Shown here in pieces: positions 6,693 through 24,000 of a DNA stretch of 24,000 nt. Numbering within the stretch: position 1 is the stretch's first letter; every line of letters starts with the position of its first letter. This DNA is from Pyrinomonadaceae bacterium. Lineage in GTDB: Bacteria > Acidobacteriota > Blastocatellia > Pyrinomonadales > Pyrinomonadaceae. Where the stretch lies: NCBI GenBank assembly GCA_041747435.1, contig JBGTFE010000074.1, positions 21,824 through 45,823 of the forward strand. Direction: 5' to 3'. The notes under the pieces are model-generated. The model worked only from the letters and a program-made list of their open reading frames with translations, was not told the DNA's origin and did no database searches. A program made the translations under genes and the position numbers.

Positions 6693-8090
6693 ATGTATAA
6701 AAGATATAGCGACTTTTCCCGCGCTCGCCTGCTAAGATCACAATCTTGTGAGAGGAATTTTATTTTGGATGTTGCGGTAATCGAAACTCCGGTTGTTAAT
6801 CCGACCAATTTGCCCGCGGCGAACATCGCCGAGGAAAATCCGGCGCCGGTTTTGCCCGCGATCGATATCGGCGAGCTTACCTTCGAGCTCGGCTTTTGGC
6901 TGTCGGGACTGGAGAGCTTTTTGAATATTCGAAATCATTCGTTTGCGGATGAATCGCGCACAAAAGCAACGTCGCGCGATTGGGTGAAAGAGTTTCACCT
7001 CACGCATTCGACACTTTTGCGCTGTTCGAGATTGACTTTTCAGCTTGAAAAATACCTCAAACAAAGTGAAGAATGCGATATTTTCTGGCTAAAACCTGAC
7101 GAGCTTTTTGAATTTTCAGCGCTTTTGAAAGACTCCGTTTTGCTAAATGAAGCGCTTTTACGCGCCGCGCCGCTCCGGTTTGGCGAATGGACGGCATGGA
7201 GCAAAACGCTTTCGGATAAATTCGCAAAAAGCGAAGTGATACAAAAACTCGTCAGATCGGCTGAGCAAACCGGCGAGAGCTTTTTGCCCGAGATTCTTCG
7301 CGCATCGCTCGAAGCAAAATCGCTTTCCTTTGCGACGGCGAGCGATCTGCGGCTCGTTTTGCCGCGATTCGCCAAGGTCTTGAAATGGCTCGGCGTGATC
7401 GAAAAAATGTTGAAAAACGACGAACCGCTGAAACCCACGCTTTTGATCTTTTCGCGCATTTACGAACAAATTCGCGAACTGATGAACTACATAAACAACC
7501 GACTTTTGCGATTTTCCGACGAAGAAGATCAGCTATTCGGAATTCTCGACGGCGCGAGCTACGCCGCTTCGATCGAGCTCCGAAAGGTTTATAATTACGA
7601 GCTCGCCGGACTCGCCGAAATTCGTCAATCGCCGATGATCCATGCCAAGATCGAAACTGCGTTTTCACTTCTAAACGATAGTTTTCAGCTCACTTTGGTC
7701 AATTTTGCGCAAATGATCGAACCGACGATCGATCCTTTCGATGTCTTTCCCTCGCTGAAGGCAAAGTTCGAACGCTCTCTGAATCTGCGCGGTGATCTGT
7801 GGAAAGTTTTGTCGGAAGTCAGAAAGGCGGAAGAAGACGCCGAAAAATATCCGCTGGGAAAATTAAATGCGCAATTGACCGAATTTGGCGAAGGCAGCAT
7901 GCAGTTTTTATTTTATAAGGATCGGGAAACGGTGGAAAGATTTATCGAAGAGGTTTTGATTACGCCGCACAAAACCGATCTTGTGCCGATACTTCATCGT
8001 TTCGGCGCTTATCTGGAAACGCTTTTTGGACAAATAAATATGCGCGTCGTTTTAGCAAATCATCCGTTTGAATATCCGCAGAATCGCTGA
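6693..8090 (+). CDS. Hypothetical, predominantly helical protein (about 465 aa)
   Basis: This is a long open frame. The track start at 6489 overlaps rdgB by 128 nt, so I use ATG 6693. An alternative is TTG 6765, preceded by GAGAGGA. I recognise no motif. Confidence 0.55.
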   Translation: MYKRYSDFSRARLLRSQSCERNFILDVAVIETPVVNPTNLPAANIAEENPAPVLPAIDIGELTFELGFWLSGLESFLNIRNHSFADESRTKATSRDWVKEFHLTHSTLLRCSRLTFQLEKYLKQSEECDIFWLKPDELFEFSALLKDSVLLNEALLRAAPLRFGEWTAWSKTLSDKFAKSEVIQKLVRSAEQTGESFLPEILRASLEAKSLSFATASDLRLVLPRFAKVLKWLGVIEKMLKNDEPLKPTLLIFSRIYEQIRELMNYINNRLLRFSDEEDQLFGILDGASYAASIELRKVYNYELAGLAEIRQSPMIHAKIETAFSLLNDSFQLTLVNFAQMIEPTIDPFDVFPSLKAKFERSLNLRGDLWKVLSEVRKAEEDAEKYPLGKLNAQLTEFGEGSMQFLFYKDRETVERFIEEVLITPHKTDLVPILHRFGAYLETLFGQINMRVVLANHPFEYPQNR

Positions 8091-10613
8091 TTATTGAGGG
8101 CGCAAAGTCGCGAGCGGTTTTCGAAACAGTACGTCAAAGCTTGCGATCGCGCCAACCAAAGTTACGAGCGCAGCCGTAATTAAGACGCCGAAAACCGTCA
8201 ATCCAAAATCGAATTCCCAATCAATATCAAAAATATATTTCGCGACCGAATAGGAAAGCGCGGTCGCAAACCCGGCGCCGATCATTCCAGCTAAAATGCC
8301 GAGAAGTCCGTATTCGGCGAAAAGTATCGCGCCCAATGTCAGCCGTTTTGCGCCGAGGGTTTTCAGGATCGCGTTTTCATAAATTCGCTGCGATTTGGTC
8401 AGCGCGATCGAGCCGATCAGGATCAAAATTCCGCTCAAAATAACAAAACTTCCGACAAACGAAATAGCAAGAACAAAATTATTTATCAACTTTTGAACGG
8501 CGGCGACGATATCGGCGATGTCAAAGATCTGTATGTTCGGGAATTTATCAATGATGCCGCGCTGCAGCCTTTGCCGATCCGTTTCGGGAATTCTTGTAAG
8601 AACATTCGCCGCGTAAGTTTGCGGCGCTCGTTCGAGCACATCGGGACGAAAAACGAAAATAAAAGCGGTGCGCGTGTTTCGTAAGTCGAGCTTGCGAATA
8701 CTGGCAATTTGCGCGGTTAATTTTCTGCCCGAAATATCAAACGTTATTGAATCGCCGGCAGAAACTTTCAAGCGCGTCGCCATATCTTCTTCGACCGAAA
8801 CCTGCGGAACATCCAGGTTTTCGCTCCACCATTCGCCGGCGATGACGCTCTCGTTCTTATCAAGATTCGCGCGATATGTGACGGCAAATTCGCGCCCGAT
8901 CTGTCCTTGCTGTTGGCGTGTTTCGCGATTTCCAAAGTCAAACGGCTCGCCGTTTATAAACGCGATCCGCGCGCGAACGGTAGGGACGATCTCCGCCGCT
9001 TCGCCGGTTTTTTCTTCGAGAATTTTTCGAACTTCATCAACCTGGCTGCGCTGAATATCGACCATAAAAAGGCTCGGCAGCGTTTGATTGCGCGTGAAAT
9101 CAAACTCGCGAACGAGATTCGCCTGCAGCGACTGAACCGCCAAAACAACGAACGCGCCAAGCCCGACGGCGAGAAGAATTATCCGCGTTTGATTGCCCGG
9201 ACGATACAGCGAATTAACCGCTTGCTTGACGGAAAACGAGCTGAAAGTTTTGATCTTTTTCAGCAGCCACGTCAAAAGAATCGCCGCAAGATACAAGATC
9301 AAAGATGTCGCGCCAAGCCCGACGAGAAAAAACGCGCCGACTTTCAGCGAGCCAGCCTGCCATGCCGAAAGCGCGAGCAATCCGCCGACGGTTACGATAG
9401 TAAAAAGCGACTTTGTCCAATCGAGCCGCCGCATTTTCTCGCCGCCTGCATCGTGCAGCAAAAGGCGTGGTTTTATATTGCGCACCTGCAAAAGCGGCAG
9501 CGCGGAAAACAAAAGCGAGATCAAAACGCCAAGCAAAATGCCTTGCCAAACGGACGAAAACTGCACTGTGTATTGCATCGAAGCCGGAAGCGCATCGGCA
9601 AATCTATATTGCGCAAACCACAAGAAACATTGCGCCAAAAAAACGCCGAAAAAACTTCCCGCCAAGCCGAGCGTCAATATTTGCAAAAGATAAACCGTAA
9701 TGATTCGCGTCCCGCTGGCACCGAGACATTTTAAAACCGCGACCGATTTTCGCTTTTGCTCGACAAAAACTCTTGCCACATTCCAAACGCCGACGCCGCC
9801 GAGAACGAGAATCAGCAAGCCCGTCAAAGAAAGATAATTTTCCGTCCGCTCAAACTGCTCGCTCACGTTTTCCTGCGTTTCGCGATAAGACTGGACGCGC
9901 ACAATTGTGTCCTTTAGATTTTCGCGCAGATCTTTTACTAATTCAGTTGGATTATCCGACGTGCGGTAAAGAATTCTGCGCCGAATCCGGCTCGCATTGC
10001 GCGTTATCTCGGCTTCGTCAAAAGCTTTTTTCTCTATAAAAACTCGCGGACCGAGGCGAAAACCGCCGGTTCCGCCCGGTTCTTCATCAAAAGTCGCACG
10101 AACCTGGAATTCTGCTTCGCCGATACGGATCTTATCGCCGATCTTTATCTTTAGATCTTCCAACAACAACGGCGAAACGACCGCGCCTCGATTTTCAAGC
10201 AGTTTGAAATCGAAAGGCGCGCCGCCGGAAATCGTAAATTCGCCGACAAGCGGAAAAGGCGGCTCGATGCCCTTTAGCTCGGAGAACGAAAGCGTTTGAT
10301 TTGCTTCATCGACCGGACGCGCCATTGCCGCCGTCGTGATCGTTTCGTTTCGCGCTTCAACGATATTTGACCTGTTTATTGCTTCTTCGATCTTTGCGAT
10401 CTCGCTTGGTGAAAAATCGTTGGTCGAGCTTATTTCGATATCCGCCGTCATAAGCGCGCGCGCGTCACCGCCGACAGTTCTGCTCAAATTTTGAATTAGC
10501 GAGCGAAGTGCGACGATCGACCCGACGCCGATCGCAATGCACAGAAAGAAAAACAAGAGCCTGCGCCACGACGAGCGAATTTCACGAAATGTCAGGTTGA
10601 AAATAAAATTCAT
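8091..10613 (-). CDS. ybbP: ABC transporter permease with two FtsX-type domains (YbbP-like)
   Basis: 840 aa. Two blocks of four TM segments are each preceded by a large extracytoplasmic domain (MacB/FtsX layout). It lies directly downstream of the ATPase gene. Confidence 0.8.
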   Translation of the reverse strand: MNFIFNLTFREIRSSWRRLLFFFLCIAIGVGSIVALRSLIQNLSRTVGGDARALMTADIEISSTNDFSPSEIAKIEEAINRSNIVEARNETITTAAMARPVDEANQTLSFSELKGIEPPFPLVGEFTISGGAPFDFKLLENRGAVVSPLLLEDLKIKIGDKIRIGEAEFQVRATFDEEPGGTGGFRLGPRVFIEKKAFDEAEITRNASRIRRRILYRTSDNPTELVKDLRENLKDTIVRVQSYRETQENVSEQFERTENYLSLTGLLILVLGGVGVWNVARVFVEQKRKSVAVLKCLGASGTRIITVYLLQILTLGLAGSFFGVFLAQCFLWFAQYRFADALPASMQYTVQFSSVWQGILLGVLISLLFSALPLLQVRNIKPRLLLHDAGGEKMRRLDWTKSLFTIVTVGGLLALSAWQAGSLKVGAFFLVGLGATSLILYLAAILLTWLLKKIKTFSSFSVKQAVNSLYRPGNQTRIILLAVGLGAFVVLAVQSLQANLVREFDFTRNQTLPSLFMVDIQRSQVDEVRKILEEKTGEAAEIVPTVRARIAFINGEPFDFGNRETRQQQGQIGREFAVTYRANLDKNESVIAGEWWSENLDVPQVSVEEDMATRLKVSAGDSITFDISGRKLTAQIASIRKLDLRNTRTAFIFVFRPDVLERAPQTYAANVLTRIPETDRQRLQRGIIDKFPNIQIFDIADIVAAVQKLINNFVLAISFVGSFVILSGILILIGSIALTKSQRIYENAILKTLGAKRLTLGAILFAEYGLLGILAGMIGAGFATALSYSVAKYIFDIDWEFDFGLTVFGVLITAALVTLVGAIASFDVLFRKPLATLRPQ

Positions 10614-10620
10614 AAAACAT

Positions 10621-10698
10621 TTAGCCGCAAGAATTCACAAAAAATCGCAAAAAATAAAATACATAATTTTTGAGTATTTTGTGCATCTTTGCGGCTAA
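10621..10698. repeat. Imperfect 22-nt inverted repeat spanning the ybbA stop and the ybbP start region
   Basis: ttagccgcaagaattcacaaaa (10621-10642) pairs with ttttgtgcatctttgcggctaa (10677-10698). The outer 10 bp are perfect. The loop holds A-tracts in 10-nt phase (cacaaaaaat cgcaaaaaat). The ybbA stop codon (10695-10697) lies inside the right arm. Confidence 0.75.
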
Positions 10699-11366
10699 TT
10701 TCTTTCATCGGACACGACTTTTCCGTCCTTCAAAATGATCTGCCGCTGCGCTTGTCCGGCGAGTGTCGCGTCGTGCGAAACAAGGATCAAAGTCACGTTA
10801 TTCTGAAGATGGAGTTCGGTCATCAAATCGAAAATATGCTGCCCGTTTTTTGAATCGAGATTGCCGGTTGGTTCGTCGGCGAGCAAAATTTTCGGATGAT
10901 TCGCAAACGCGCGGGCGATGGCGACGCGCTGCTGCTCGCCGCCTGAAAGCTCGGTCGGATAATGATGCCCGCGGTTTGTCAGATCGACGTCGATCATCAA
11001 TTTGTCGGCGCGCGTTTTTACGTCTTCAAGCCCGAGAATTTCCATCGGGATCAAAACATTTTCATACGCGGTGAGCGAAGGAATCAGATGAAACGACTGA
11101 AAAACAAAACCAATCTTTTCGCTGCGGATCGCGGCGAGCGCGTCTTCGCTCATTTTGGTAATATCTTCGCCGTCGATCGAAATTGTGCCCGAAGTCGGCG
11201 CGTCCAAGCCGGCGATCAAACCGAGCAGCGTAGATTTTCCGCTGCCCGAAGCGCCCGTTACCGCGACAAATTCCCCGTCGGGAATTTCCAGTGAAACGTC
11301 GTCGAGGATCGTCAAATCTTCCGCGCCGGAGCGCACTGTTTTGGTTACGTTTTGAAGAACAATCAT
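10695..11366 (-). CDS. ybbA: ABC transporter ATP-binding protein (YbbA/LolD-like)
   Basis: 223 aa. Walker A GASGSGKST, signature LSGGEQQRVAIARA, Walker B ILLADEPTGNLD. Confidence 0.9.
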   Translation of the reverse strand: MIVLQNVTKTVRSGAEDLTILDDVSLEIPDGEFVAVTGASGSGKSTLLGLIAGLDAPTSGTISIDGEDITKMSEDALAAIRSEKIGFVFQSFHLIPSLTAYENVLIPMEILGLEDVKTRADKLMIDVDLTNRGHHYPTELSGGEQQRVAIARAFANHPKILLADEPTGNLDSKNGQHIFDLMTELHLQNNVTLILVSHDATLAGQAQRQIILKDGKVVSDERN

Positions 11367-12430: not shown

Positions 12431-12563
12431 GTCAGAACCGGGAGCGGTAGCGACCGGTTGAAGTCTAGCATTTTGGTCGCTTGAATTTTTTGAATTGCCT
12501 TCGGCTAAACCAGCGTTTCGAGCCGGCTGTATTAAACCCGTCGCTACCGCTCCCGGTTCTGAC
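12431..12563. repeat. 133-bp element bounded by perfect 24-bp inverted repeats
   Basis: gtcagaaccgggagcggtagcgac (12431-12454) is the exact reverse complement of gtcgctaccgctcccggttctgac (12540-12563). The interior is 85 nt. No flanking direct repeat is seen. Confidence 0.85.
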
Positions 12564-12636
12564 CCGCAATTCGTAATTTTTCGTTGTTGTTCGTCGCGAA
12601 TTCGATTAAAATTTGCGTGGCGGCGCGTGATCATAA

Positions 12637-13308
12637 ATGGATGAAGAAAAAAAATTGCTTATTTCAGTTGGATTAATTCTTTTCGGTTGGTTTCTGGGGC
12701 AAGGTACGGAACTTTTCCGAAAATGGTCAATGAATCGCCGGCTGAAAGTCGCGTTATATGAAGAACTTCAAGATTTAGCCAGTATTCTCAATGCATTGCG
12801 AATCTACTTCCTTCACCGTCTTGAAGGGCATTCGGTCGGTTTCTTAGAGACCAGCGAACCTTTACCACTCAATAATCAAATTTATACGAACAAATACACT
12901 GATATTAGCTTAAAATTAAATCGCAACCAGAGATTATCTTATGAAACAATTCATGGTTTCATCAATGCCTTTAATAAACGCTTGGATCCAATAGCGCACT
13001 TAACAATACGTGCGATTGAAACTCACGACTCAGAAATTTTTGACAAGCTGGGTGATATGCTCAAAGCTCAATACTTAAATATCGAGATGTTACGTTCGCG
13101 AATTGGCTATCATTTGAGAAATCCTAGGAGACCGGCATTTGGAACTAATGACGAAGGAGTCTCGGAAATTCTAAAAGCCCAAAAAATCTGCATTGAGCAA
13201 ATTGAATCCCTAATAGAAAAATGGCAATCGGGTACGTTGGAAGACTATTTAGCCCAAAAAGAATTTCGGTATCAAATTCTTACGATGCCTTCCTCCGAAG
13301 ATAAATGA
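12637..13308 (+). CDS. Hypothetical protein with one N-terminal TM helix and a helical body; AT-rich
   Basis: 223 aa. LLISVGLILFGWFLGQG is a TM segment. Spot GC is 17/60 at 12901-12960. I recognise no motif. Confidence 0.55.
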   Translation: MDEEKKLLISVGLILFGWFLGQGTELFRKWSMNRRLKVALYEELQDLASILNALRIYFLHRLEGHSVGFLETSEPLPLNNQIYTNKYTDISLKLNRNQRLSYETIHGFINAFNKRLDPIAHLTIRAIETHDSEIFDKLGDMLKAQYLNIEMLRSRIGYHLRNPRRPAFGTNDEGVSEILKAQKICIEQIESLIEKWQSGTLEDYLAQKEFRYQILTMPSSEDK

Positions 13309-13406
13309 ATTGTCAACTGACGTAAATCTTGGACAAAATCCCCAATTTTTGTTAGGCTTTACCTTGCTTTTTCGGCATCCAATACAAAATTTTTATTTAA
13401 TAAGAG

Positions 13407-13412
13407 TATAAT
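13407..13412 (+). promoter_or_regulatory. Consensus -10 hexamer TATAAT, 8 nt upstream of ATG 13421 (possible leaderless start)
   Basis: TATAAT is seen directly. There is no Shine-Dalgarno sequence between it and the ATG, and the upstream region is AT-rich. Confidence 0.35.
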
Positions 13413-13420
13413 AAAACAAT

Positions 13421-15376
13421 ATGTTTAGTGATAATTTCAGACGCGGCGAAGGGAAAGGTAAGGGAAAAACCGGCTCGAAAGCCGCTTCGAAACTTGCCGA
13501 TTTGGGTTGGAAAGCCTTTCAAGCCGTTAATAAATCTTTGCCCGAAGGCGAATCAATTACGCCGAATTGGGCGGCGGAACCGCTTTTGAAATCGTATGAG
13601 CGCACCGCGCCGCCGCTCGGTTTTCCGCGTGAGACGGATTCGCTTTGCCCGACGTGCGTGAAGAATGTGCGGAACGGTGTGATTGACAAATCTATTCCGC
13701 TCGAAATTTTGATGAATTCGCATCCGGGCGAGATCAAGGCGCAGATCGTCGAAGAAAACGGACAAGTTTTGATGAAGAAAACTTGCGCGACGCACGGCGA
13801 ATTTGTGGACGTTTTGGCGACCGATCCGGCATTTTTGGAACGCATCGAGAGTTTATTTTACGGGCGCGATTTTAAAGCGGCGGAAGACACGCACGTTCAT
13901 CATCACGGAACTTCGGACATCAAATTCGGACGCGGCGCGGTTTTGACGGTTGATTTGACAAACCGCTGCAATATGATGTGCAACCCGTGTTTTATGGACG
14001 CGAATCAGGTCGGCTATGTCCACGAACCGACGTTTGAAGACACGAAACAAATTCTTGACAACGCCGTTTCATTCAAACCGCGCCGACAGATCATCATTCT
14101 TTTTTCGGGCGGCGAACCGACGATTGCGCCGCACTTTTTGGAGTCGGTCGCGTATGCGAAAAAGGTCGGCTTTTACAGAATTTTAGCGGCGACGAATGGC
14201 ATTCGCTACGCCGAAGACATCGAGTTTTGCAAAGCCGCTAAAGAAGCCGGACAACACGGCGTTTATTTGCAATTCGACGGAACGAGCGAAGAAAAAAACA
14301 AACATCGTGGCGTGGGAAATCTCTTTGACGTGAAACTCAAAGCGATTGAAAATCTCGCGTCGGTCGGCATCAAAGTTACGCTTGTAACGACGATTGTTAA
14401 TACGATCAATAACGATGCCATCGGCGACATCGTCAGATTTGCGGCGGAAAATATTGATAAAGTTCAGACGATTGCTTTTCAGCCGGTTTCATTTACCGGA
14501 CGCGATGAAGATATTTCCGACAAAGACCGCATCGAGCAACGCTACACGCTGGCGGGAATGACGCACGATTTGAAAGATCAACTCGACGGCAACCTCGCGC
14601 TCGAACCACTTCGTGATTGGTTTCCGCTTTCTTCATATTCGGCGTTCACTTCCGTGATGGATATGCTGCAAGGCGCGGACGCGCCGTGGGGCTGGTCGTC
14701 GTGCAACTGTCATCCGAATTGCGGAATTTTTACGCTCGTCGTCGTTAATAAAAAGACGAACGAAATGCGTTCGCTGTTTGAGTTTTTCAATTATGAACAA
14801 TTTATGCAGGACGTGGCGACGATCACCGACACGGCTCGCGGCAAGAAATTGACGATGGCTCAACTCGGAATGGCGATTATGCGAAATTACAACGCATCGA
14901 ACGCGCCGGAAGGTTTTCCGATCTCGCAAATTTTGAATCTTTTCAAACCGTCGTCCGCCGATTCAAATTCAGACCGCAATGACCGGATGAAAACGCGCGA
15001 AGAAGAAGACGTTTGGCGCGTTCTCTGTGTCGAGGGAATGTGGTTTCAGGATTTGTTCACATACGATTTTCGCCGCACGGAAATGTGTGTTATCCCTTAT
15101 GGAACACAGGACGGCGAAATTTCATTCTGCGCTTACAACACCGGAGTCGGCTGGCGGCAAATCGTCGAAGAAATGAACAAAACCGCGTCTTTGAGTGAAT
15201 GGTATAAAGAAAACGGTCGCCACGCCGTCTATGCGAAAGGCAAGGAAGTTCCGAATATCGAAAAAACGCGCAGTTTGAGTCTTCCGATAATTGCAAAAGT
15301 CTTGCAGGAAGATTTGGACAAACCGACCGCAACGCCTTATCTTGTTGAAGAAGAATCCGAAACGGTCTCAATATAG
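13421..15376 (+). CDS. Radical SAM protein, COG1964/MJ0619-like (tetraether lipid synthase Tes / GDGT-MAS family homologue)
   Basis: 651 aa. Radical SAM motif C183-x3-C187-x2-C190 (CNMMCNPC). Upstream knuckle: SLC76PTC79 ... IKAQIVEENGQVLMKKTC122ATH125GEF. Later Cys clusters: SSCNCHPNCG and MCVIPYG...ISFCAYN. The radical SAM call is firm; the family assignment is from memory of the MJ0619-type layout. Confidence 0.75.
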   Translation: MFSDNFRRGEGKGKGKTGSKAASKLADLGWKAFQAVNKSLPEGESITPNWAAEPLLKSYERTAPPLGFPRETDSLCPTCVKNVRNGVIDKSIPLEILMNSHPGEIKAQIVEENGQVLMKKTCATHGEFVDVLATDPAFLERIESLFYGRDFKAAEDTHVHHHGTSDIKFGRGAVLTVDLTNRCNMMCNPCFMDANQVGYVHEPTFEDTKQILDNAVSFKPRRQIIILFSGGEPTIAPHFLESVAYAKKVGFYRILAATNGIRYAEDIEFCKAAKEAGQHGVYLQFDGTSEEKNKHRGVGNLFDVKLKAIENLASVGIKVTLVTTIVNTINNDAIGDIVRFAAENIDKVQTIAFQPVSFTGRDEDISDKDRIEQRYTLAGMTHDLKDQLDGNLALEPLRDWFPLSSYSAFTSVMDMLQGADAPWGWSSCNCHPNCGIFTLVVVNKKTNEMRSLFEFFNYEQFMQDVATITDTARGKKLTMAQLGMAIMRNYNASNAPEGFPISQILNLFKPSSADSNSDRNDRMKTREEEDVWRVLCVEGMWFQDLFTYDFRRTEMCVIPYGTQDGEISFCAYNTGVGWRQIVEEMNKTASLSEWYKENGRHAVYAKGKEVPNIEKTRSLSLPIIAKVLQEDLDKPTATPYLVEEESETVSI

Positions 15377-20615: not shown

Positions 20616-21563
20616 ATGGACAATCTAAAAATCGGACTCGCACAGTTTGCGCCCGTTTGGATGAATCGTCAAAAGACGCTCGAAAAGGCTGTTCGTTTTG
20701 CGGAAGACGCGGCAAATCAGAATTGCGAACTCGTCGTTCTCGGCGGCGAAGCATGCGTCGGCGGTTATCCTTACTGGCTCGAACTGACGGGCGGCGCGGT
20801 TTTCAATTCACAAATTCAAAAGGAATTTTTCGCCGAATATTCCAACCAAGCTGTCGTCATCGAACGCGGCGATTTACAAATAATCTGCGATCTGGCGCGT
20901 GAAAAGAGCATTGCAATTTACATCGGCATCGTCGAAAAGCCGTCTGACCGGGGCGAAAGCCTTTTTGCCGCGCTCGTTTTTATTGATCGAAACGGCGAGA
21001 TAAAATCGGTTCAGCGCAAACTCGTGCCGACCTACGAAGAAAGATTAGTTTGGGCAAACGGCGACGGCAACGGTCTGCGCGTTCACAATGTCGGCGCGTT
21101 CACCGTCGGCGGTCTGAACTGCTGGGAAAACTGGAATCCCTTGGCACGCGCCGCGCTCTACGGGCAAGGCGAAGATTTTCACATCTGCGTTTTTCCCGGC
21201 GGCATTCACAACACGCACGACATCACGCGCTTCATCGCCAAAGAATCACGCTCATTCGTCGCGTCCGTTTCCTGCGTGATGAAAAAAGAAGATTTTCCCG
21301 AAAACACGATTTATCTCGACAAAATCCTAGAAAACGCACCCGACATATTATCAAACGGCGGAACATGCCTCGCCGCGCCCGACGGCGAATGGATCATCGA
21401 ACCTTTTACAACGGAAGAAAAACTCGTCGTCGCCGAAATCAACCACCAAAAAGTGTGCGAAGAACGCCAGAATTTAGACGTTGCCGGACATTATTCACGC
21501 CCTGACGTTTTGCAGTTGATGGTCAACAGAACGCGGCAGAAAATAATCAAATTCGATGAATAA
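20616..21563 (+). CDS. Nitrilase-family carbon-nitrogen hydrolase
   Basis: 315 aa. The catalytic triad context is present: LGGEACVGGYPYW (E), QRKLVPTYEERLVWANGDG (K), GGLNCWENWNPL (C). Confidence 0.88.
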   Translation: MDNLKIGLAQFAPVWMNRQKTLEKAVRFAEDAANQNCELVVLGGEACVGGYPYWLELTGGAVFNSQIQKEFFAEYSNQAVVIERGDLQIICDLAREKSIAIYIGIVEKPSDRGESLFAALVFIDRNGEIKSVQRKLVPTYEERLVWANGDGNGLRVHNVGAFTVGGLNCWENWNPLARAALYGQGEDFHICVFPGGIHNTHDITRFIAKESRSFVASVSCVMKKEDFPENTIYLDKILENAPDILSNGGTCLAAPDGEWIIEPFTTEEKLVVAEINHQKVCEERQNLDVAGHYSRPDVLQLMVNRTRQKIIKFDE

Positions 21564-21607: not shown

Positions 21608-21895
21608 GTGAATTACACTTGGCACGAAGAAAAAGCTGAAGGAGTCCACCGCAAACACGCGATTGAGTTTGCGAAAATTACGGAAATTTTCAGCGATCCT
21701 TATGCCGTCGAATTCATAGACGAACAACATTCTACAGATGAAGAAACGCGCTACGCGATAATCGGCGCAACCCGTTACGGCGTGGTTTATCTGGTTTTTA
21801 CCGAAATAAGTGAAGACGAACTGCATTTTATCACGGCGCGTTTGGCAGAAAATTGGATGGTCAAAGAGTATGAAAAAAACAGGAAAAGATCTTGA
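21608..21895 (+). CDS. brnT: BrnT family (DUF497) toxin
   Basis: 95 aa. The pattern W-x3-K-x5-K-H-x-I-x-F...IFSDPYA...D..HS..E.R....G......LVFT......FITAR.A is the BrnT pattern. Confidence 0.85.
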   Translation: MNYTWHEEKAEGVHRKHAIEFAKITEIFSDPYAVEFIDEQHSTDEETRYAIIGATRYGVVYLVFTEISEDELHFITARLAENWMVKEYEKNRKRS

Positions 21896-22211
21896 AATGG
21901 AAACAAGTAAAGAAGCAAAAAAAGCGGGTTTAAAACGCATCGAACGCAGACATTTTGCCGAAAAAGACGAAGTGAAATTATCCGACTGCAAGGTGAAAAT
22001 CACGATAAATCTGGACGCGGACATTCTCGAATATTTCAAACAACGCGCCGCGCCGGCGCATTCCGCGCCGTATCAAACGCAAATCAACAACGAACTGCGC
22101 CGAACTATGGAAAATGACGATTCGCACAATGATTTGAGCAAAACCGCGCAGGAGCTTTTACAGGACGATAATTTTATCGGCGCGCTGAAAGATAAATTGA
22201 AAGCGGCTTGA
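21870..22211 (+). CDS. brnA: BrnA family antitoxin
   Basis: Starts at ATG 21870 (MKKTGKDLEM...) and overlaps the brnT 3' end by 26 nt. ITINLDADILEYFKQRA....PYQTQINNELRR matches the BrnA ribbon-helix-helix-like signature. The track start at 21810 lies inside brnT. Confidence 0.8.
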   Translation: MKKTGKDLEMETSKEAKKAGLKRIERRHFAEKDEVKLSDCKVKITINLDADILEYFKQRAAPAHSAPYQTQINNELRRTMENDDSHNDLSKTAQELLQDDNFIGALKDKLKAA

Positions 22212-22216
22212 AAGAT

Positions 22217-22245
22217 TTGATTGATATTAATTCCAGCGTTAAAGT
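22217..22245 (+). promoter_or_regulatory. Putative promoter TTGATT-17-TAAAGT, 6 nt upstream of GTG 22252
   Basis: The hexamers and spacing are seen directly. No Shine-Dalgarno sequence. Confidence 0.3.
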
Positions 22246-22251
22246 TCTATT

Positions 22252-22491
22252 GTGATAAATCTCGACAATCATGAAATTGAATTAACCTGCCCAAGTTGTG
22301 AGTTTTATTGTTATGTAACATTGAAGCAAGTCCGACTAAAAGACCCAGTAATATGTCGTGGGTGCAGAGCTACAATTAATTTCGATGATCACATGAATAC
22401 AACTCGAAAAACTCTGCGGTCTATAAATAGAGCAATGCGTGATTTAGAAGAAACTCTAAGAAATTTTGGAAATGTAACAACTAAATTATAA
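22252..22491 (+). CDS. Small zinc-ribbon protein (79 aa), hypothetical
   Basis: C13-x2-C16 ... C35-x2-C38 (CPSC ... CRGC) followed by a basic, helical tail. Very AT-rich. The only in-frame start is GTG. Confidence 0.55.
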   Translation: MINLDNHEIELTCPSCEFYCYVTLKQVRLKDPVICRGCRATINFDDHMNTTRKTLRSINRAMRDLEETLRNFGNVTTKL

Positions 22492-22494
22492 AAT

Positions 22495-23493
22495 ATGGAT
22501 GCTCAAATAATTCAAAATCTACGTTATAAACTCCAAAAAAGAATTCGTCGACTCAATTCAGCGAATACGGAAGTCTTCGCACCCGTCCTACAACAGTTCT
22601 GGGCTTTTTTTGATAACCAACAAACGCTGGACGGCATTATCAGAAGTGTCGTTTCCGCCTATCCCAGAGCTTCTGAAATTGTTGATAATATTTTTGAAGG
22701 AACGGTGTCTTGGGGCGCGACGGAAGAAGAAGCAGCAGTCATCGGATATGAAATTTTGAGACGGATTAAAGATGAGGAGTCGATGCGTAACACCTTACAC
22801 GCAGTGAGTAATGCTCAGATAACTTATGATTCTAACTACGAGGAAATTCTAAATACATTTAGAGACGTTTTTCTTGAGCCTTTTTATGAATATATTGACG
22901 AGCAACTTGACGACCAAAGAGCAATTTTGAGTTTACTATATCGGTACAAGCATCGAATCGAATGGTTTAATCGGGAACGACTTTCGCAACTTTATCAAAA
23001 TAATACAACTAAAGGCGAAAAATTATTAGCTTTGGATTTATATTCTTATTTACATGACCAAGGATTTAATTTTTCGATTGAGCCATCTTCCATTGATGGT
23101 TCAATTGATTTAATTTCAATTCAAGATTCAGATGACCCGTTACTAGCAGATGCGAAAATTTTCGATGGCGATAGTAGAGGAAAAACTTATCTTTGTAAAG
23201 GTTTTAATCAAATCTACACCTATACTCAACAATATAATGAGCCTTTTGGATATTTAGTAATTTTCAAAGTAACTGACAGAGATTTAAGATTTTCTCTTGC
23301 AACTGATTCTAGAAATGTTCCTGTTGTGACTTACAATCACAAAACAATTTTCTTGATAACCATTGATATTTATCCCCATCCAAAACCCGTTTCACAACGC
23401 AATCCGATAAATGCTATTGAAATCAAAGAGGAAGATTTAGTTCGTTCTGTCGAAGGTGGAAATCCTGAATCAATTACCGAGCCAATCAAATAG
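22495..23493 (+). CDS. Hypothetical protein: N-terminal helical domain plus C-terminal PD-(D/E)xK nuclease-like core
   Basis: 332 aa, starting 3 nt after the zinc-ribbon gene stop. Core elements: GE175KLLALDLYSYL (helix), FNFSIEP (strand), GSID205LISI, LLAD219AK221IF, NQIYTYTQQY (helix), FGYLVIFKV (strand). Spot GC is 18/60 at 22501-22560. Confidence 0.6.
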   Translation: MDAQIIQNLRYKLQKRIRRLNSANTEVFAPVLQQFWAFFDNQQTLDGIIRSVVSAYPRASEIVDNIFEGTVSWGATEEEAAVIGYEILRRIKDEESMRNTLHAVSNAQITYDSNYEEILNTFRDVFLEPFYEYIDEQLDDQRAILSLLYRYKHRIEWFNRERLSQLYQNNTTKGEKLLALDLYSYLHDQGFNFSIEPSSIDGSIDLISIQDSDDPLLADAKIFDGDSRGKTYLCKGFNQIYTYTQQYNEPFGYLVIFKVTDRDLRFSLATDSRNVPVVTYNHKTIFLITIDIYPHPKPVSQRNPINAIEIKEEDLVRSVEGGNPESITEPIK

Positions 23494-24000
23494 CATCTTT
23501 TCCTGCCGGAAAAGCGCGTGCTCCGGTTTCTCGTTTCTTGTCATCGGAAGCTTGAAGAATACGGAAAGCTGTTCCTGGATTCCTTTTTCGCCGCGGCGTT
23601 TTGCTAAATCTAAGAGTCGCGCGATCTCGATCGCGAGCGGCGCGGCGAGGATCGAATCTTTGCAAAGAAAATTAACCTTTATCTGCATCGATTGTCCCAA
23701 AAAACCGACGACGTCGATGTTGTCCCACGCTTCTTTGTTGTCGCCGCGCGGACGATAATAGCGAATGTCGACGAGATGATCTTCGACTTCGTAACCTAGA
23801 ATATCTTCGAGAACCGAGCTTTTCGTTTTGACCTTTGAAGCGAGCGAATCTTCGTTTGAAAGCGCGAGCCCGTCGCGGTTTCCTAAAATATTGGTTGAAT
23901 ACCAACCTTCGACCTTTAATGCGCGTGTTTTGAACGCGGGCGCGAGAACGCTTTTGATCATTGTCTGTCCGGTTTTGCCGTCTTTTCCGGCGATCGGAAC
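23470..24000 (-). CDS. ino1: Inositol-3-phosphate (myo-inositol-1-phosphate) synthase, C-terminal part; the ORF continues past the right edge
   Basis: The sequence ...VPIAGKDGKTGQTMIKSVLAPAFKTRALKVEGWYSTNILGNRDG...SKVKTKSSVLEDILGY...YYRPRGDNKEAWDNID..GFLG..MQIKVNFLCKDSILAAPL matches the MIPS C-terminal pattern. The frame is open from 23961 to 24000. Confidence 0.85.
   Translation of the reverse strand, partial: VPIAGKDGKTGQTMIKSVLAPAFKTRALKVEGWYSTNILGNRDGLALSNEDSLASKVKTKSSVLEDILGYEVEDHLVDIRYYRPRGDNKEAWDNIDVVGFLGQSMQIKVNFLCKDSILAAPLAIEIARLLDLAKRRGEKGIQEQLSVFFKLPMTRNEKPEHALFRQEKMLFDWLGN

Follow-up and report, generated by a model that had tools for sequence, protein, structure and literature searches.

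Nucleases with the PD-(D/E)xK fold include Hjc, RecB, NucS, and Vsr, and in Mrr- and MspJI-type enzymes an N-terminal reader is followed by a C-terminal PD-(D/E)xK domain. Shedu has been linked to BREX-type loci (PMC12839542, NAR 2026); the section of that work on embedded nuclease effectors describes no zinc-ribbon partner, and the phrase "zinc ribbon" is absent from the whole paper. PDC-M14 is a phage defense candidate of PADLOC-DB v2 that was chosen for its embedding in BREX, DISARM, or type I restriction–modification (RM) loci (Payne et al. 2024, bioRxiv 10.1101/2024.01.29.577857), and it is absent from the candidates tested in PMC12881386.

Here we describe a two-gene cassette in a 24,000-nt stretch of DNA from a Pyrinomonadaceae bacterium (the whole analyzed stretch is called the window), in which a small gene, A, for a putative zinc-ribbon protein precedes a larger gene, B, for a predicted PD-(D/E)xK nuclease. 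Literature searches on PDC-M14 and on zinc-ribbon plus PD-(D/E)xK defense pairs turned up no account of this pair, and we regard the cassette as a credible new candidate for an anti-phage or anti-plasmid module.

Results

A foreign segment inserted between brnTA and ino1

The features of the locus are as follows.

21608–22211, plus strand: brnT (21608–21895) and brnA (21870–22211), a type II toxin–antitoxin pair; neighbor, outside the cassette
22214–23469, no strand assigned: inserted segment of foreign composition with the A–B cassette, bounded by the stop codons of brnA and ino1
22217–22245, plus strand: promoter-like TTGATT-17-TAAAGT, a weak candidate agreeing with the sigma-70 consensus at 8 of 12 positions, under the scan threshold
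22252–22491, plus strand: gene A, open reading frame with a GTG start, for a predicted zinc-ribbon protein of 79 aa
22495–23493, plus strand: gene B, for a protein of 332 aa
23470–24000, minus strand: 3′ part of ino1 (myo-inositol-1-phosphate synthase; Pfam Inos-1-P_synth, E 9.3e-33), a core gene; neighbor, outside the cassette
23497–23514, no strand assigned: 7-bp hairpin CTTTTCC-TGCC-GGAAAAG, beginning 4 nt past the B stop and within the ino1 coding sequence

A preliminary description of this DNA had placed the cassette directly beside brnTA, its two open reading frames 3 nt apart, as if dropped into a core locus, and the present analysis bears this out. Both BrnT (BrnT_toxin, 58.3 bits against a cut-off of 34.5, E 9.9e-16) and BrnA (BrnA_antitoxin, 37.8 bits against 26.1, E 2.5e-9) score above their Pfam cut-offs, and their genes overlap by 26 nt. 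A and B are real genes separated by the 3 nt described, and the convergent overlap of the B and ino1 3′ ends is indeed 24 nt long (23470–23493). In related loci ino1 lies next to the nitrilase gene, with 78–83% identity.

The insertion is 1.26 kb long with the A–B cassette inside it. The cassette has a GC content of 0.351 against a window median of 0.47, and of all 1258-nt stretches in the window, the one lowest in GC starts at 22185 and is the cassette itself. GC at third codon positions is 0.225 in A and 0.276 in B, compared with 0.57 in the nitrilase gene, 0.56 in ino1, and 0.50–0.57 across the flanking genes; brnTA, at 0.44–0.47, is unlike the cassette. The earlier claim that this is the most AT-rich part of the window stands, as does the count of 18/60 GC at 22501–22560, but the 36/60 quoted for the nitrilase gene is on the high side (60-mers average 30.8/60, range 20–39).

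A related metagenome locus, L087, provides an empty-site relative in which brnTA is followed directly by ino1 without A or B, and the cassette is therefore strain-variable. Nucleotide homology to this locus stops at 22213 and restarts at 23591; in place of the cassette it has 322 nt of non-coding filler, and the ino1 protein is conserved up to its stop at 23470. Two further related loci (L083 and L085) have neither the cassette nor brnTA. The cassette is thus a horizontally acquired, strain-variable insertion.

The insertion is compact (1.26 kb), has a foreign GC content, contains neither an integrase nor a transposase, and occupies an intergenic hotspot. These features would suit a selfish mobile element propagated by B acting as a homing-type endonuclease. 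However, a repeat scan found no direct or inverted repeats flanking the segment, the cassette has neither terminal repeats nor a target duplication, insertion sites are unrelated between genomes, and the cassette does not sit in introns or inteins. No viral relatives were found by tblastn against a phage collection or by a scan of IMG/VR, and we consider homing very improbable. Neither an integration mechanism nor an RNA element was indicated by the Rfam, repeat, promoter, and terminator scans.

The cassette had been credited with its own promoter-like sequence and with no terminator at its 3′ end. The TTGATT-17-TAAAGT sequence is present, but a promoter is not supported beyond chance, as promoter-like sites in the region number 7 compared with 5.8 ± 2.2 in shuffles. 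Its −10 element ends 6 nt ahead of the GTG start, and a transcript initiated there would be leaderless. The statement on the terminator is nearly right: the 7-bp hairpin directly after the B stop was reported by the terminator scan on the minus strand and has no T-run on the plus strand, and it may act weakly as a terminator in both directions or have arisen by chance.

Gene B encodes a two-domain protein with a PD-(D/E)xK signature

Within gene B the following elements can be placed.

22495–23004, plus strand: all-helical N-domain, residues 1–170, putative regulatory or partner-binding module common to PADLOC PDC-M14B
23005–23454, plus strand: predicted PD-(D/E)xK nuclease domain, residues 171–320, from motif and AlphaFold topology
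23017–23019, 23107–23109, 23149–23151, and 23155–23157, plus strand: codons of the predicted catalytic residues E175, D205, D219, and K221, from the alignment
23209–23223, plus strand: QxxxY motif, Q239/Y243, from the alignment
23455–23493, plus strand: non-conserved C-terminal tail, running into the convergent ino1 at its 3′ end

The AlphaFold model of full-length B has a pLDDT of 91.3, and that of the nuclease domain alone has 81.7. Helices span residues 3–188 and are followed by the strand and helix order of restriction endonucleases. The N-domain helices (3–22, 28–40, 43–55, 59–67, 77–90, 94–106, 115–158, and 160–169) have pLDDT values mostly above 90, and the core elements are a helix at 174–188, strands at about 195–207, a strand at 217–223, a helix at 230–246, and a strand at 251–258. 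This is the alpha-beta-beta-beta-alpha-beta order of the PD-(D/E)xK fold, and the acidic residue of the first helix, the D of strand 2, and the (D/E)xK of strand 3 all fall on the expected elements.

Across 76 B homologues of 29–63% identity, E175, G202, D205, K221, and S300 never vary, position 219 is always acidic (D or E), and Q239 and Y243, which make up the QxxxY motif of Cas4 and RecB, are kept in at least 90%. The model and alignment agree with the preliminary description, which had read from the letters a helical N-terminal portion of ~170 aa in the 332-aa product, a restriction-endonuclease-like order of elements after it, and E175, D205, D219, and K221 in the expected places. The homologues stop near residue 320, and the tail of B beyond that point has low pLDDT.

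A comparison with solved PD-(D/E)xK structures, which had been suggested as a check, gave nucleases as the best matches, but none was significant. The closest structure to the B domain model is the nuclease domain of DdmD (E 0.015, probability 0.90), and the PDB searches gave further weak and individually non-significant matches to BamHI, PaqCI, Bse634I, SwaI, MUS81, McrC, and Avs4. Many of the better-ranked matches in the three Foldseek searches (full-length B against the PDB, the domain against the PDB, and BFVD) are PD-(D/E)xK nucleases, and none of these searches returned a match at E ≤ 0.001; the nuclease assignment therefore draws together motif, topology, and consistent weak matches.

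Sequence searches give a similar picture. Pfam gives B no match at E ≤ 1, its NCBIfam matches are all at chance level and well under the cut-offs, a PHROGs search returned no meaningful family, and a PDB sequence-profile search with the 76 homologues gave only a spurious match to a natriuretic peptide receptor. In hhalign comparisons the B profile showed nothing (probability <4%) against either a PDDEXK_GAPS4 protein or the C-terminal 252 residues of the helicase at one locus, L079, a stretch chosen to take in its NOV_C region. Some homologues have weak Pfam matches to PDDEXK_9, Vsr, UPF0102, McrBC, Hjc, and Tox-REase-9, and these cluster in the PD-(D/E)xK clan. The B alignment contains no conserved cysteines. 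Taken together, sequence and model point to a PD-(D/E)xK nuclease, predicted to cleave in a metal-dependent manner.

In a Foldseek search against the PDB, the N-domain of B has no fold match to any solved structure. In two homologues, P0194 and P0204, a charged stretch is inserted where the domains meet.

With this architecture, which parallels that of the Mrr- and MspJI-type enzymes, B might be a solitary type IV or modification-dependent restriction enzyme whose N-domain reads a DNA feature and whose C-domain cuts directly, with A as an accessory DNA-binding or specificity subunit and with neither an abortive nor a sensing step. At most loci the cassette lacks an adjoining cognate methyltransferase, cyanobacteria have solo B genes, and the weak homologue matches include the Vsr and McrBC families, all of which would fit such an enzyme. 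However, no modification-reader domain (SRA, YTH, winged helix, or similar) was detected in B, and no Mrr or McrB partner was found. In addition, the N-domain is shared with PDC-M14B, and the matches to that candidate never reach into the nuclease domain of B, as would be expected of a regulatory module or adaptor more than of a domain that reads DNA. We judge a restriction enzyme of this kind to be unlikely.

Gene A encodes a small predicted zinc-ribbon protein

The two CxxC knuckles that had been noted in the 79-aa product (C13/C16, codons at 22288–22299, and C35/C38, codons at 22354–22365) are present and conserved. Across 32 A homologues from many phyla, C13, C16, C35, G37, and C38 are invariant, and the one extra cysteine, C20, is not conserved. 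Two conserved CxxC knuckles about 18 residues apart are the pattern of a zinc ribbon, and A is predicted to be one and to bind zinc. Stand-alone A homologues number 108 and are 63–93 aa long.

No family could be assigned to A, which has only weak, generic zinc-ribbon matches; the weak profile matches involve the zinc ribbons of MCM4 and RadD as well as the YnfU and ECs_2282 families. The C-terminal half of A is probably helical, as suggested by weak coiled-coil and helical-bundle profile matches over residues 43–78. A PDB sequence-profile search with the 32 homologues gave only generic zinc-ribbon and coiled-coil noise. Gene A was left uncalled by the NCBI annotation in both cases seen, one being the locus L006 and the other the genome of the window itself.

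A and B are co-inherited across at least 13 phyla

The B family, which has no name, comprises 759 matches at 90% clustering and 876 clusters at 50%, and it spans at least 13 phyla, archaea included. In the tree the B of the window stands apart from those of other Acidobacteriota. A lies directly upstream of B in 49 of the 62 genome loci that could be assessed, and the spacing is in most cases −4 to +27 nt. The family occurs in four plasmid records, with A upstream of B on both of the plasmids examined, and the pair is also found in further metagenome loci. Two divergent A proteins (L080 and L081) each have a B-family partner. Distances between A proteins and between B proteins are correlated (Pearson 0.73; 0 of 2000 Mantel permutations as high), a correlation that would also be expected for any two genes sharing a host phylogeny. 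Co-inheritance of the two genes, which the preliminary description had proposed to check, is thus borne out.

There is a single natural fusion of A and B (L051), in a metagenome-assembled genome (MAG) that we take to be nanopore-derived. Since the two frames are one indel apart in such a MAG, the fusion may be an indel artifact, and we down-weight it as Rosetta-stone evidence.

B is also kept without A. At least 12 loci in which A is missing or broken retain a full-length B with all catalytic residues; at one of them, L046, a stop lies inside the second knuckle of A and B is intact. The A-less B genes, among them the solo genes of cyanobacteria, occur at no fewer than six separate places in the tree, which corresponds to at least six independent losses of A.

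These losses bear on the possibility that the cassette is a type II toxin–antitoxin (TA) addiction module, in which B would be a nuclease toxin and A a labile zinc-ribbon antitoxin, together stabilizing the DNA that carries them. A small gene precedes a larger nuclease gene and lies close to it or overlaps it, the pair occurs on plasmids, more than one divergent copy per genome is possible (two such copies, L035 and L041, lie on one contig), and the cassette occupies a hotspot beside brnTA here and has VapBC-like or MazEF-like neighbors in cyanobacteria. However, a classical toxin is not kept without its antitoxin, and B is kept without a functional A in at least 12 loci after at least six losses, with no inactivation of B. 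A is therefore not a strictly required antitoxin, which argues against an addiction module, and no known antitoxin family matches A. The suggestion of an addiction module, made as an alternative in the preliminary description, is weakened accordingly, and we regard it as improbable.

The same distribution can be set against a housekeeping function, in which B, resembling a resolvase or NucS, would serve in DNA repair or recombination and A would be its zinc-ribbon cofactor. A few homologues with weak Hjc or Vsr matches would be in keeping with such a role, but the family has a patchy, transfer-driven distribution and foreign composition, close relatives lack the cassette at the same locus, some copies are pseudogenized or truncated (L018, L048, and L065), and there is no association with repair genes. 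A housekeeping role is, in our estimation, highly unlikely.

Some cassettes lie inside or beside defense loci

At L079 and at L006/L007, which are BREX-related loci, the cassette has the Swi2/Snf2 helicase-nuclease on one side and the DUF1156 methyltransferase on the other, and L006/L007 also have an OLD-family nuclease. The locus type was assigned after the description of Type-1 BR in PMC12839542. At L081, the cassette follows a type IIG RM enzyme by 28 nt. Elsewhere it adjoins TA pairs: brnTA in the window and VapBC-like or MazEF-like pairs in cyanobacteria. The neighbor sets include PARIS/Old/Gabija-like ATPases, BrxHII, BrxC/D, type I RM, AbiEi, and DISARM genes.

Near neighbors matched 157 PADLOC models and far neighbors 77, a semi-quantitative comparison that counts models rather than proteins and has defense genes in its control set. 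Because one protein can match many models, these counts are not an enrichment statistic. Housekeeping surroundings are common, as at L077, at L078, and, apart from brnTA, in the window. The expectation that the genes would be found near known defense genes is therefore answered in part: some cassettes are embedded in or adjoin defense loci (L079, L006/L007, and L081), but many contexts are housekeeping.

Discussion

With our confidence about evenly divided, we put forward the reading that the cassette is a nuclease-effector defense module that is modulated by its zinc-ribbon partner. At the core of this horizontally acquired two-gene module would be B, acting as a metal-dependent PD-(D/E)xK DNA endonuclease, with catalysis by E175 in the first core helix, D205 in strand 2, and D/E219-x-K221 in strand 3, together with a RecB/Cas4-style Q239xxxY243 helix. 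A, which the 3-nt gap suggests is translationally coupled to B, would most likely bind B and modulate or trigger the nuclease, and B would be kept in check, probably by its own N-domain. Infection would be sensed by A or by the N-domain, and the nuclease would then be released or directed to its target and would cut foreign or host DNA. The role would most likely be defense against phages or other invading DNA. The cautious wording of the preliminary description, a candidate nucleic-acid-sensing or -cleaving module, has held in each part that could be tested here, namely the architecture, the catalytic signature, co-inheritance, insertion, and some of the defense contexts.

A broader proposal, which we offer tentatively, is that the cassette is the most abundant member of a modular immune class in which the ~170-residue helical adaptor, common to PDC-M14B, couples a zinc-ribbon sensor to interchangeable effectors, the sensor being dispensable in some hosts, notably cyanobacteria. 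Such a class would bring a new sensing or gating mechanism and a new domain fold, beyond another nuclease system.

If the cassette is a defense system, it is a widespread one, found in at least 13 phyla that include archaea and many poorly studied environmental lineages, and its family is missed by Pfam and NCBIfam. Its 79- and 332-aa proteins would make a compact two-protein model for zinc-ribbon control of a nuclease, and the repeated retention of an intact B without A is a natural experiment. A defense role would also give a functional meaning to one class of stand-alone nucleases in BREX-related loci. The cassette would be of modest interest if it proved to be simply a restriction enzyme or a selfish element of the TA kind.

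The preliminary description could match the pair to no named system, and this is borne out. The LmuA model of Lamassu is matched by only 3 of the 76 B homologues (best E 5.7e-6), and no SMC-like gene that could be LmuB stands beside the cassette in the annotated loci, so we do not place the cassette in Lamassu. Type II TA systems with a nuclease toxin, BrnTA included, resemble the cassette in gene sizes, order, spacing, hotspot, and plasmid occurrence, but the putative antitoxin A is repeatedly lost with B intact, and no TA family matches A or B. The nucleases RecB, Cas4, and AddB and the nuclease domain of DdmD, the best structural match, share with B the motif order E, D, (D/E)xK, QxxxY. Unlike them, B lacks both the Fe-S cysteine cluster of Cas4 and a helicase domain, and its sequence is not significantly similar to that of any solved structure; with no Pfam, NCBIfam, PADLOC, or PDB sequence match to the Cas4/RecB family and no conserved cysteines, it is not assigned there.

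At L079 and L006/L007, the position of the cassette is the one described for stand-alone REases among the embedded PD-(D/E)xK effectors of BREX and BR loci (PMC12839542), but most instances of the family, including that in the window, lie outside such loci. With Shedu (SduA, DUF4263) the cassette has in common a C-terminal PD-(D/E)xK nuclease preceded by an N-terminal domain that varies, as well as linkage to BREX-type loci, and autoinhibition by the N-domain is plausibly a logic common to both. Shedu is a single gene, whereas B usually has a zinc-ribbon partner, and neither the B of the window nor any of the 76 homologues matches DUF4263 in Pfam or SduA in PADLOC; the resemblance, called loose in the preliminary description, is architectural only.

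A PADLOC scan, also suggested there, gave a weak and partial match of B to PDC-M14B and nothing relevant for A. The PDC-M14B models are matched by 29 of the 76 B homologues in their N-terminal half (best E 6.8e-12, residues 14–130) and by the B of the window at E 3e-4 over residues 9–138 only; the matches span residues ~7–141, with none in the nuclease domain. On the model side they cover positions ~10–143 of ~265 and never the C-terminal half, and the PDC-M14B profiles fall short of the length of B by ~60 positions. The A of the window has no match to PDC-M14A at E ≤ 1, and 1 of the 32 A homologues has one (E 0.005). With a partial match for B and none to PDC-M14A, PADLOC would therefore not call the cassette PDC-M14. 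The two nevertheless resemble each other as two-gene cassettes with an N-terminal helical module in the second protein, both being candidates only, and in their embedding, PDC-M14 in BREX, DISARM, or type I RM loci and this cassette in BREX-related ones. If the cassette acts in defense, the N-terminal module of PDC-M14B would gain a functional meaning as well.

Composition and flanks of the cassette

The two open reading frames recognized in the preliminary description, 3 nt apart, were recovered both in the ORF listing and in the raw sequence, and they lie among their neighbors as follows.

20616-21563, nitrilase (CN_hydrolase, Pfam)
21608-21895, BrnT (Pfam, above gathering score)
21870-22211, BrnA (Pfam, above gathering score)
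22252-22491, gene A, GTG start, 79-aa zinc-ribbon protein
22495-23493, gene B, ATG start, 332-aa PD-(D/E)xK nuclease-like protein
from 23470, ino1 (Pfam), convergent with B

The brnTA toxin-antitoxin pair is thus directly beside the cassette, and the 3′ ends of B and ino1 do overlap by 24 nt. As had been proposed, no part of the window is richer in AT: the segment has 18 G+C in 22501-22560, and the lowest-GC 1258-nt stretch of the 24 kb begins at 22185. GC content is 0.338 in A and 0.359 in B versus 0.505 in the nitrilase gene and 0.492 in ino1, and GC3 is 0.225 and 0.276 versus 0.57 and 0.56. The proposed promoter, TTGATT-17-TAAAGT, is present at 22217-22245, but it matches the consensus at just 8 of 12 positions, and promoter-like sites in the region do not exceed the shuffle expectation. 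The supposed lack of a terminator is nearly right: a 7-bp hairpin at 23497-23514 directly follows the B stop codon, but it has no T-run. An Rfam scan of the region returned no family at gathering score, and a search for flanking repeats around the cassette found none.

Two other features of the window were seen. A 14-bp imperfect hairpin inside B (23074-23108, + strand) was flagged as terminator-like and gave a sub-threshold Rfam miRNA match (E 0.86); it falls in the codons of the catalytic-strand region, IEPSSIDGSIDL, and is probably a coincidence. A second AT-rich islet (12501-13500, GC 0.38-0.41) holds a 223-aa ORF at 12637-13308 (+ strand) whose N-terminal segment is hydrophobic; it has no obvious function and may be another foreign gene.

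The cassette is a strain-variable insertion

We compared the locus with 19 related loci on metagenome contigs anchored on the nitrilase gene. In L087, whose nitrilase is 83% identical, the order is nitrilase, brnT, brnA, 322 nt of AT-rich non-coding DNA, and ino1, which is the order of the window without A-B and bears out the earlier impression of a cassette dropped into a core locus. Nucleotide homology between the window and L087 ends at 22213 and restarts at 23591, and because the ino1 protein is conserved up to its stop codon, we place the insert at about 22214-23469; the last ~12 residues of B, which are not conserved, read into ino1. The cassette is a foreign, strain-variable insertion. 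Neither brnTA nor the cassette is present in two of the related loci (L083 and L085), and another (L086) retains just a fragment of brnA. Because brnTA (21608-22211) is also variable among these relatives and has a GC3 of 0.44-0.47, between that of the core genes and that of the cassette, the nitrilase-ino1 interval is a hotspot, filled on at least two occasions.

A Pyrinomonadaceae MAG contig, L063, carries TPR and nitrilase proteins 74-78% identical to those of the window, whose host is accordingly a probable Pyrinomonadaceae-like acidobacterium. At 9110-10876 it has a different B (35% identical) without A, starting 3 nt after a TPR homologue that covers residues 1-302 of the 467 in the window TPR gene, and the contig ends just after B. 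The L063 TPR gene looks as if it was truncated by insertion, and the different B that follows it is a separate acquisition. B of the window clusters in the tree with Chloroflexota, Planctomycetota, and cyanobacterial sequences, not with other Acidobacteriota, and the family is spread over at least 13 phyla as well as plasmids. No relatives were found in a phage collection or in IMG/VR. Two divergent cassette copies occur in one genome in two cases (L035 and L041 on contig CAVPPL010000004.1; L053 and L058 in one MAG), which is typical of defence or toxin-antitoxin-like accessory modules.

A and B form a conserved module

The expectation that the two genes would be found together elsewhere was borne out. 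Among 67 loci drawn from one-genome-per-species contigs, 49 have an A homologue immediately 5′ of B in the same orientation, most of them at a spacing of -4 to +27 nt, 5 are ended by a contig edge, and 13 have no A. The same arrangement is found in L005, L006/L007, and L079, on the Polaromonas plasmid pPNAP03, although its gene table omits A, and on a Streptomyces plasmid, where the annotation includes A as a CDS of 76 aa that shares 4 nt with B. Both CxxC knuckles described for A are present (C13/C16 and C35/C38), and C13, C16, C35, G37, and C38 are invariant in 32 A sequences. A profile search found 108 A homologues of 63-93 aa, all stand-alone, and two divergent ones are each paired with a protein that clearly belongs to the B family (hhalign probability 100%). 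For 44 loci, the pairwise distances of A and B are correlated (Spearman 0.70, Pearson 0.73), at a level reached by 0 of 2000 Mantel permutations; shared host phylogeny would contribute to such a correlation. We conclude that A-B is almost certainly a real, conserved two-gene module.

NCBI gene calls lack A in both cases seen, namely L006 (A at 7734-7991) and the window's own genome, where A is recorded from Logan assemblies only, so surveys that rely on deposited annotation may score the system as a single gene. Two loci have unusual arrangements. In L072, A (8132-8359) and a partial B (10001-10615) are ~1.6 kb apart rather than a few bases, suggesting that DNA was inserted between the two. 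In L051 (9710-11050), A runs directly into B in one in-frame ORF with no linker, whereas the two are separate in its close relative L052; the L051 MAG is presumably nanopore-derived, so we put little weight on this fusion, which is possibly an indel artefact.

B has the features of a PD-(D/E)xK nuclease

A search with B of a 90%-clustered database gave 759 matches, the best 120 of which cover 92-100% of the query at 52-64% identity and carry no function name, and an exhaustive HMMER scan of 50%-identity representatives gave 876 clusters, 258 of them at E ≤ 1e-30. In an alignment of 76 sequences with identity down to 29%, E175, G202, D205, K221, and S300 are invariant, and Q239, Y243, E196, K283, D291, and R302 are at least 90% conserved. 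The residues singled out earlier (E175, D205, D219, and K221) are located as claimed. RecB/Cas4-type PD-(D/E)xK nucleases have the motif order E...D...(D/E)xK...QxxxY, and B has the same order.

An AlphaFold model made with this alignment (pLDDT 91.3, pTM 0.85) is helical over residues 3-188, followed by a strand (217-223), a helix (230-246), a strand (251-258), and more strands, and the order of elements is unchanged in a model of residues 168-332 only (pLDDT 81.7). This topology and the invariant E175, D205, and K221 agree with the predicted helical N-terminal ~170 aa followed by a PD-(D/E)xK core. Foldseek gave no significant match with the B models. The domain model matches the DdmD nuclease domain best (E 0.015, probability 0.90), and its top 50 include BamHI, PaqCI, Bse634I, SwaI, MUS81, and the Avs4 nuclease domain; the better-ranked matches of the full-length model include PspGI, McrC, DdmD, OkrAI, and Can2, and the viral library gave a RecB-family nuclease at E 0.058. 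Weak Pfam matches among family members are to PDDEXK_9 (4), Vsr (3), UPF0102 (2), McrBC, Hjc, PDDEXK_3, and Tox-REase-9. Based on the motif, the topology, and these consistent weak matches rather than one significant match, B is very probably a PD-(D/E)xK nuclease.

PDC-M14B is the only match, by structure or by sequence, to the N-domain (residues 1-170), whose boundary is marked by a charged insertion that homologues P0194 and P0204 carry. A third homologue, P0140 (651 aa), is a complete B with a ~330-residue C-terminal extension of unknown nature that could be a fusion with a downstream gene.

B is retained where A is lost

If A-B were a toxin-antitoxin pair, the addiction alternative raised at the outset, A would be needed wherever B is intact. 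A is absent from all 8 assessable cyanobacterial loci and Allocoleopsis, and from one locus each in Verrucomicrobiota, Pseudomonadota, an archaeon, and Chloroflexia. At least 12 of the loci with A missing or defective have a full-length B that keeps every conserved catalytic residue, including L046, where a stop codon interrupts the second knuckle of A; the Chloroflexia locus (L073) has a B-like ORF that failed to align in the residue test and is outside the 12. In a neighbor-joining tree, A-less B genes occupy at least 6 separate positions; two of these are different clades of cyanobacteria, and another is a Verrucomicrobium surrounded by relatives that have A. Such losses would be impossible for an antitoxin that B strictly requires, which weighs against the toxin-antitoxin reading and weakens the addiction alternative, and A is better seen as an accessory modulator or sensor.

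Cyanobacterial solo B genes lie repeatedly directly downstream of, or beside, small toxin-antitoxin-like pairs. Visual inspection gives a small upstream ORF with a PIN-like gene (L012 9250-9968, L014 9242-9884, L048 9603-10576) and a MazF-like gene with an RHH partner (L017 461-1086), and Pfam gives XisH/XisI (L003 7281-7771). They parallel brnTA beside the window cassette, through functional coupling or shared hotspots. In L048, a chimeric ORF (9878-10576) consists of the first ~40 residues of the PIN-like gene followed by B from about residue 143 on, and it looks like a decaying copy, a deletion derivative of an L012-like arrangement.

Genomic context and proposed mechanism

The cassettes of L079 and L006/L007 are flanked on one side by a Swi2/Snf2 helicase bearing NOV_C at its C terminus and on the other by a DUF1156 methyltransferase, with a DUF499 gene further along in L079, and the gene composition of these loci is that of the 'Type-1 BREX-related system' of PMC12839542. 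Stand-alone PD-(D/E)xK nucleases embedded in such loci are regarded there as auxiliary or backup effectors, and the phrase 'zinc ribbon' does not occur in that paper. An OLD-family ATPase-TOPRIM gene adjoins B in L006, and the cassette of L081 begins 28 nt after a 1027-aa MmeI-like type IIG enzyme. Frequent neighbors are Fic genes, IS elements, XisH/XisI, and VapBC-like or MazEF-like pairs. Other cassettes sit in ordinary metabolism, and the window context, from a reading of the translations, is housekeeping except for brnTA. Pooled neighbor scans show the same mixture: PLDc_2, AAA_15/AAA_21, ResIII, BrxC/D, and HsdM occur near the cassette (≤ 3.5 kb), but so do RecA, a tRNA synthetase, and the like, and type I REases, DISARM, and type IIG enzymes are also present farther out (6.5-10 kb). 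Payne et al. give this pattern, frequently solo and at times embedded, for their candidates (bioRxiv 10.1101/2024.01.29.577857). On a Streptomyces plasmid (L076 5596-7444), the cassette is ~0.9 kb upstream of 'three-Cys-motif partner protein TcmP' and 'phage Gp37/Gp68 family' genes, and the plasmid also has DUF2971 and TniB genes.

The reading of the pair as a nucleic-acid-cleaving candidate defence system holds, given the nuclease fold, the co-inheritance, and the insertion. B would be the effector, a putative metal-dependent DNA endonuclease by its fold. Its helical N-domain may be a regulatory or partner-binding module, because it is common to PDC-M14B independently of the nuclease, packs confidently onto the nuclease domain in the model (pTM 0.85), and has no homology to DNA readers. 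A would be made in a fixed ratio with B by translational coupling and, from the tight linkage and co-evolution, probably binds B and adjusts how B is activated or targeted; because A is dispensable, it would not be an obligate inhibitor. Mobility, strain variability, embedding in BREX-related and restriction-modification loci, and the PDC-M14 link make defence against phage or plasmid DNA the most likely role, and we give this mechanism an even chance of being correct.

Relation to known systems

The pair had been left without a named counterpart, and the only PADLOC lead is a partial one, PDC-M14B. Shedu, to which B had been loosely compared, is not the match, since membership fails on the tested features; the tested features of Lamassu, Cas4, and Mrr/McrBC fail as well. 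PDC-M14 is one of 145 'guilt-by-embedding' candidates, the cassette FAM_02625>>FAM_00494 with a count of 247 (bioRxiv 10.1101/2024.01.29.577857), and lies outside the candidates tested in a later study (PMC12881386). B of the window matches PDC-M14B over residues 9-138 (E 3e-4), as do 29 of 76 B homologues (best E 6.8e-12), but the match always stays within profile positions ~10-143 of ~265, short of the nuclease domain of B, and PDC-M14A is touched by only 1 of 32 A proteins (E 0.005). From the partial match of B and the mismatch of A, we conclude that the cassette shares a module with PDC-M14 and is not a member of it. Many candidate nuclease-effector defence cassettes exist, and judged from its sequence this one is an uncatalogued candidate of that familiar kind, which would be of more interest if the shared helical module and the zinc-ribbon partner prove to be a modular sensing mechanism.
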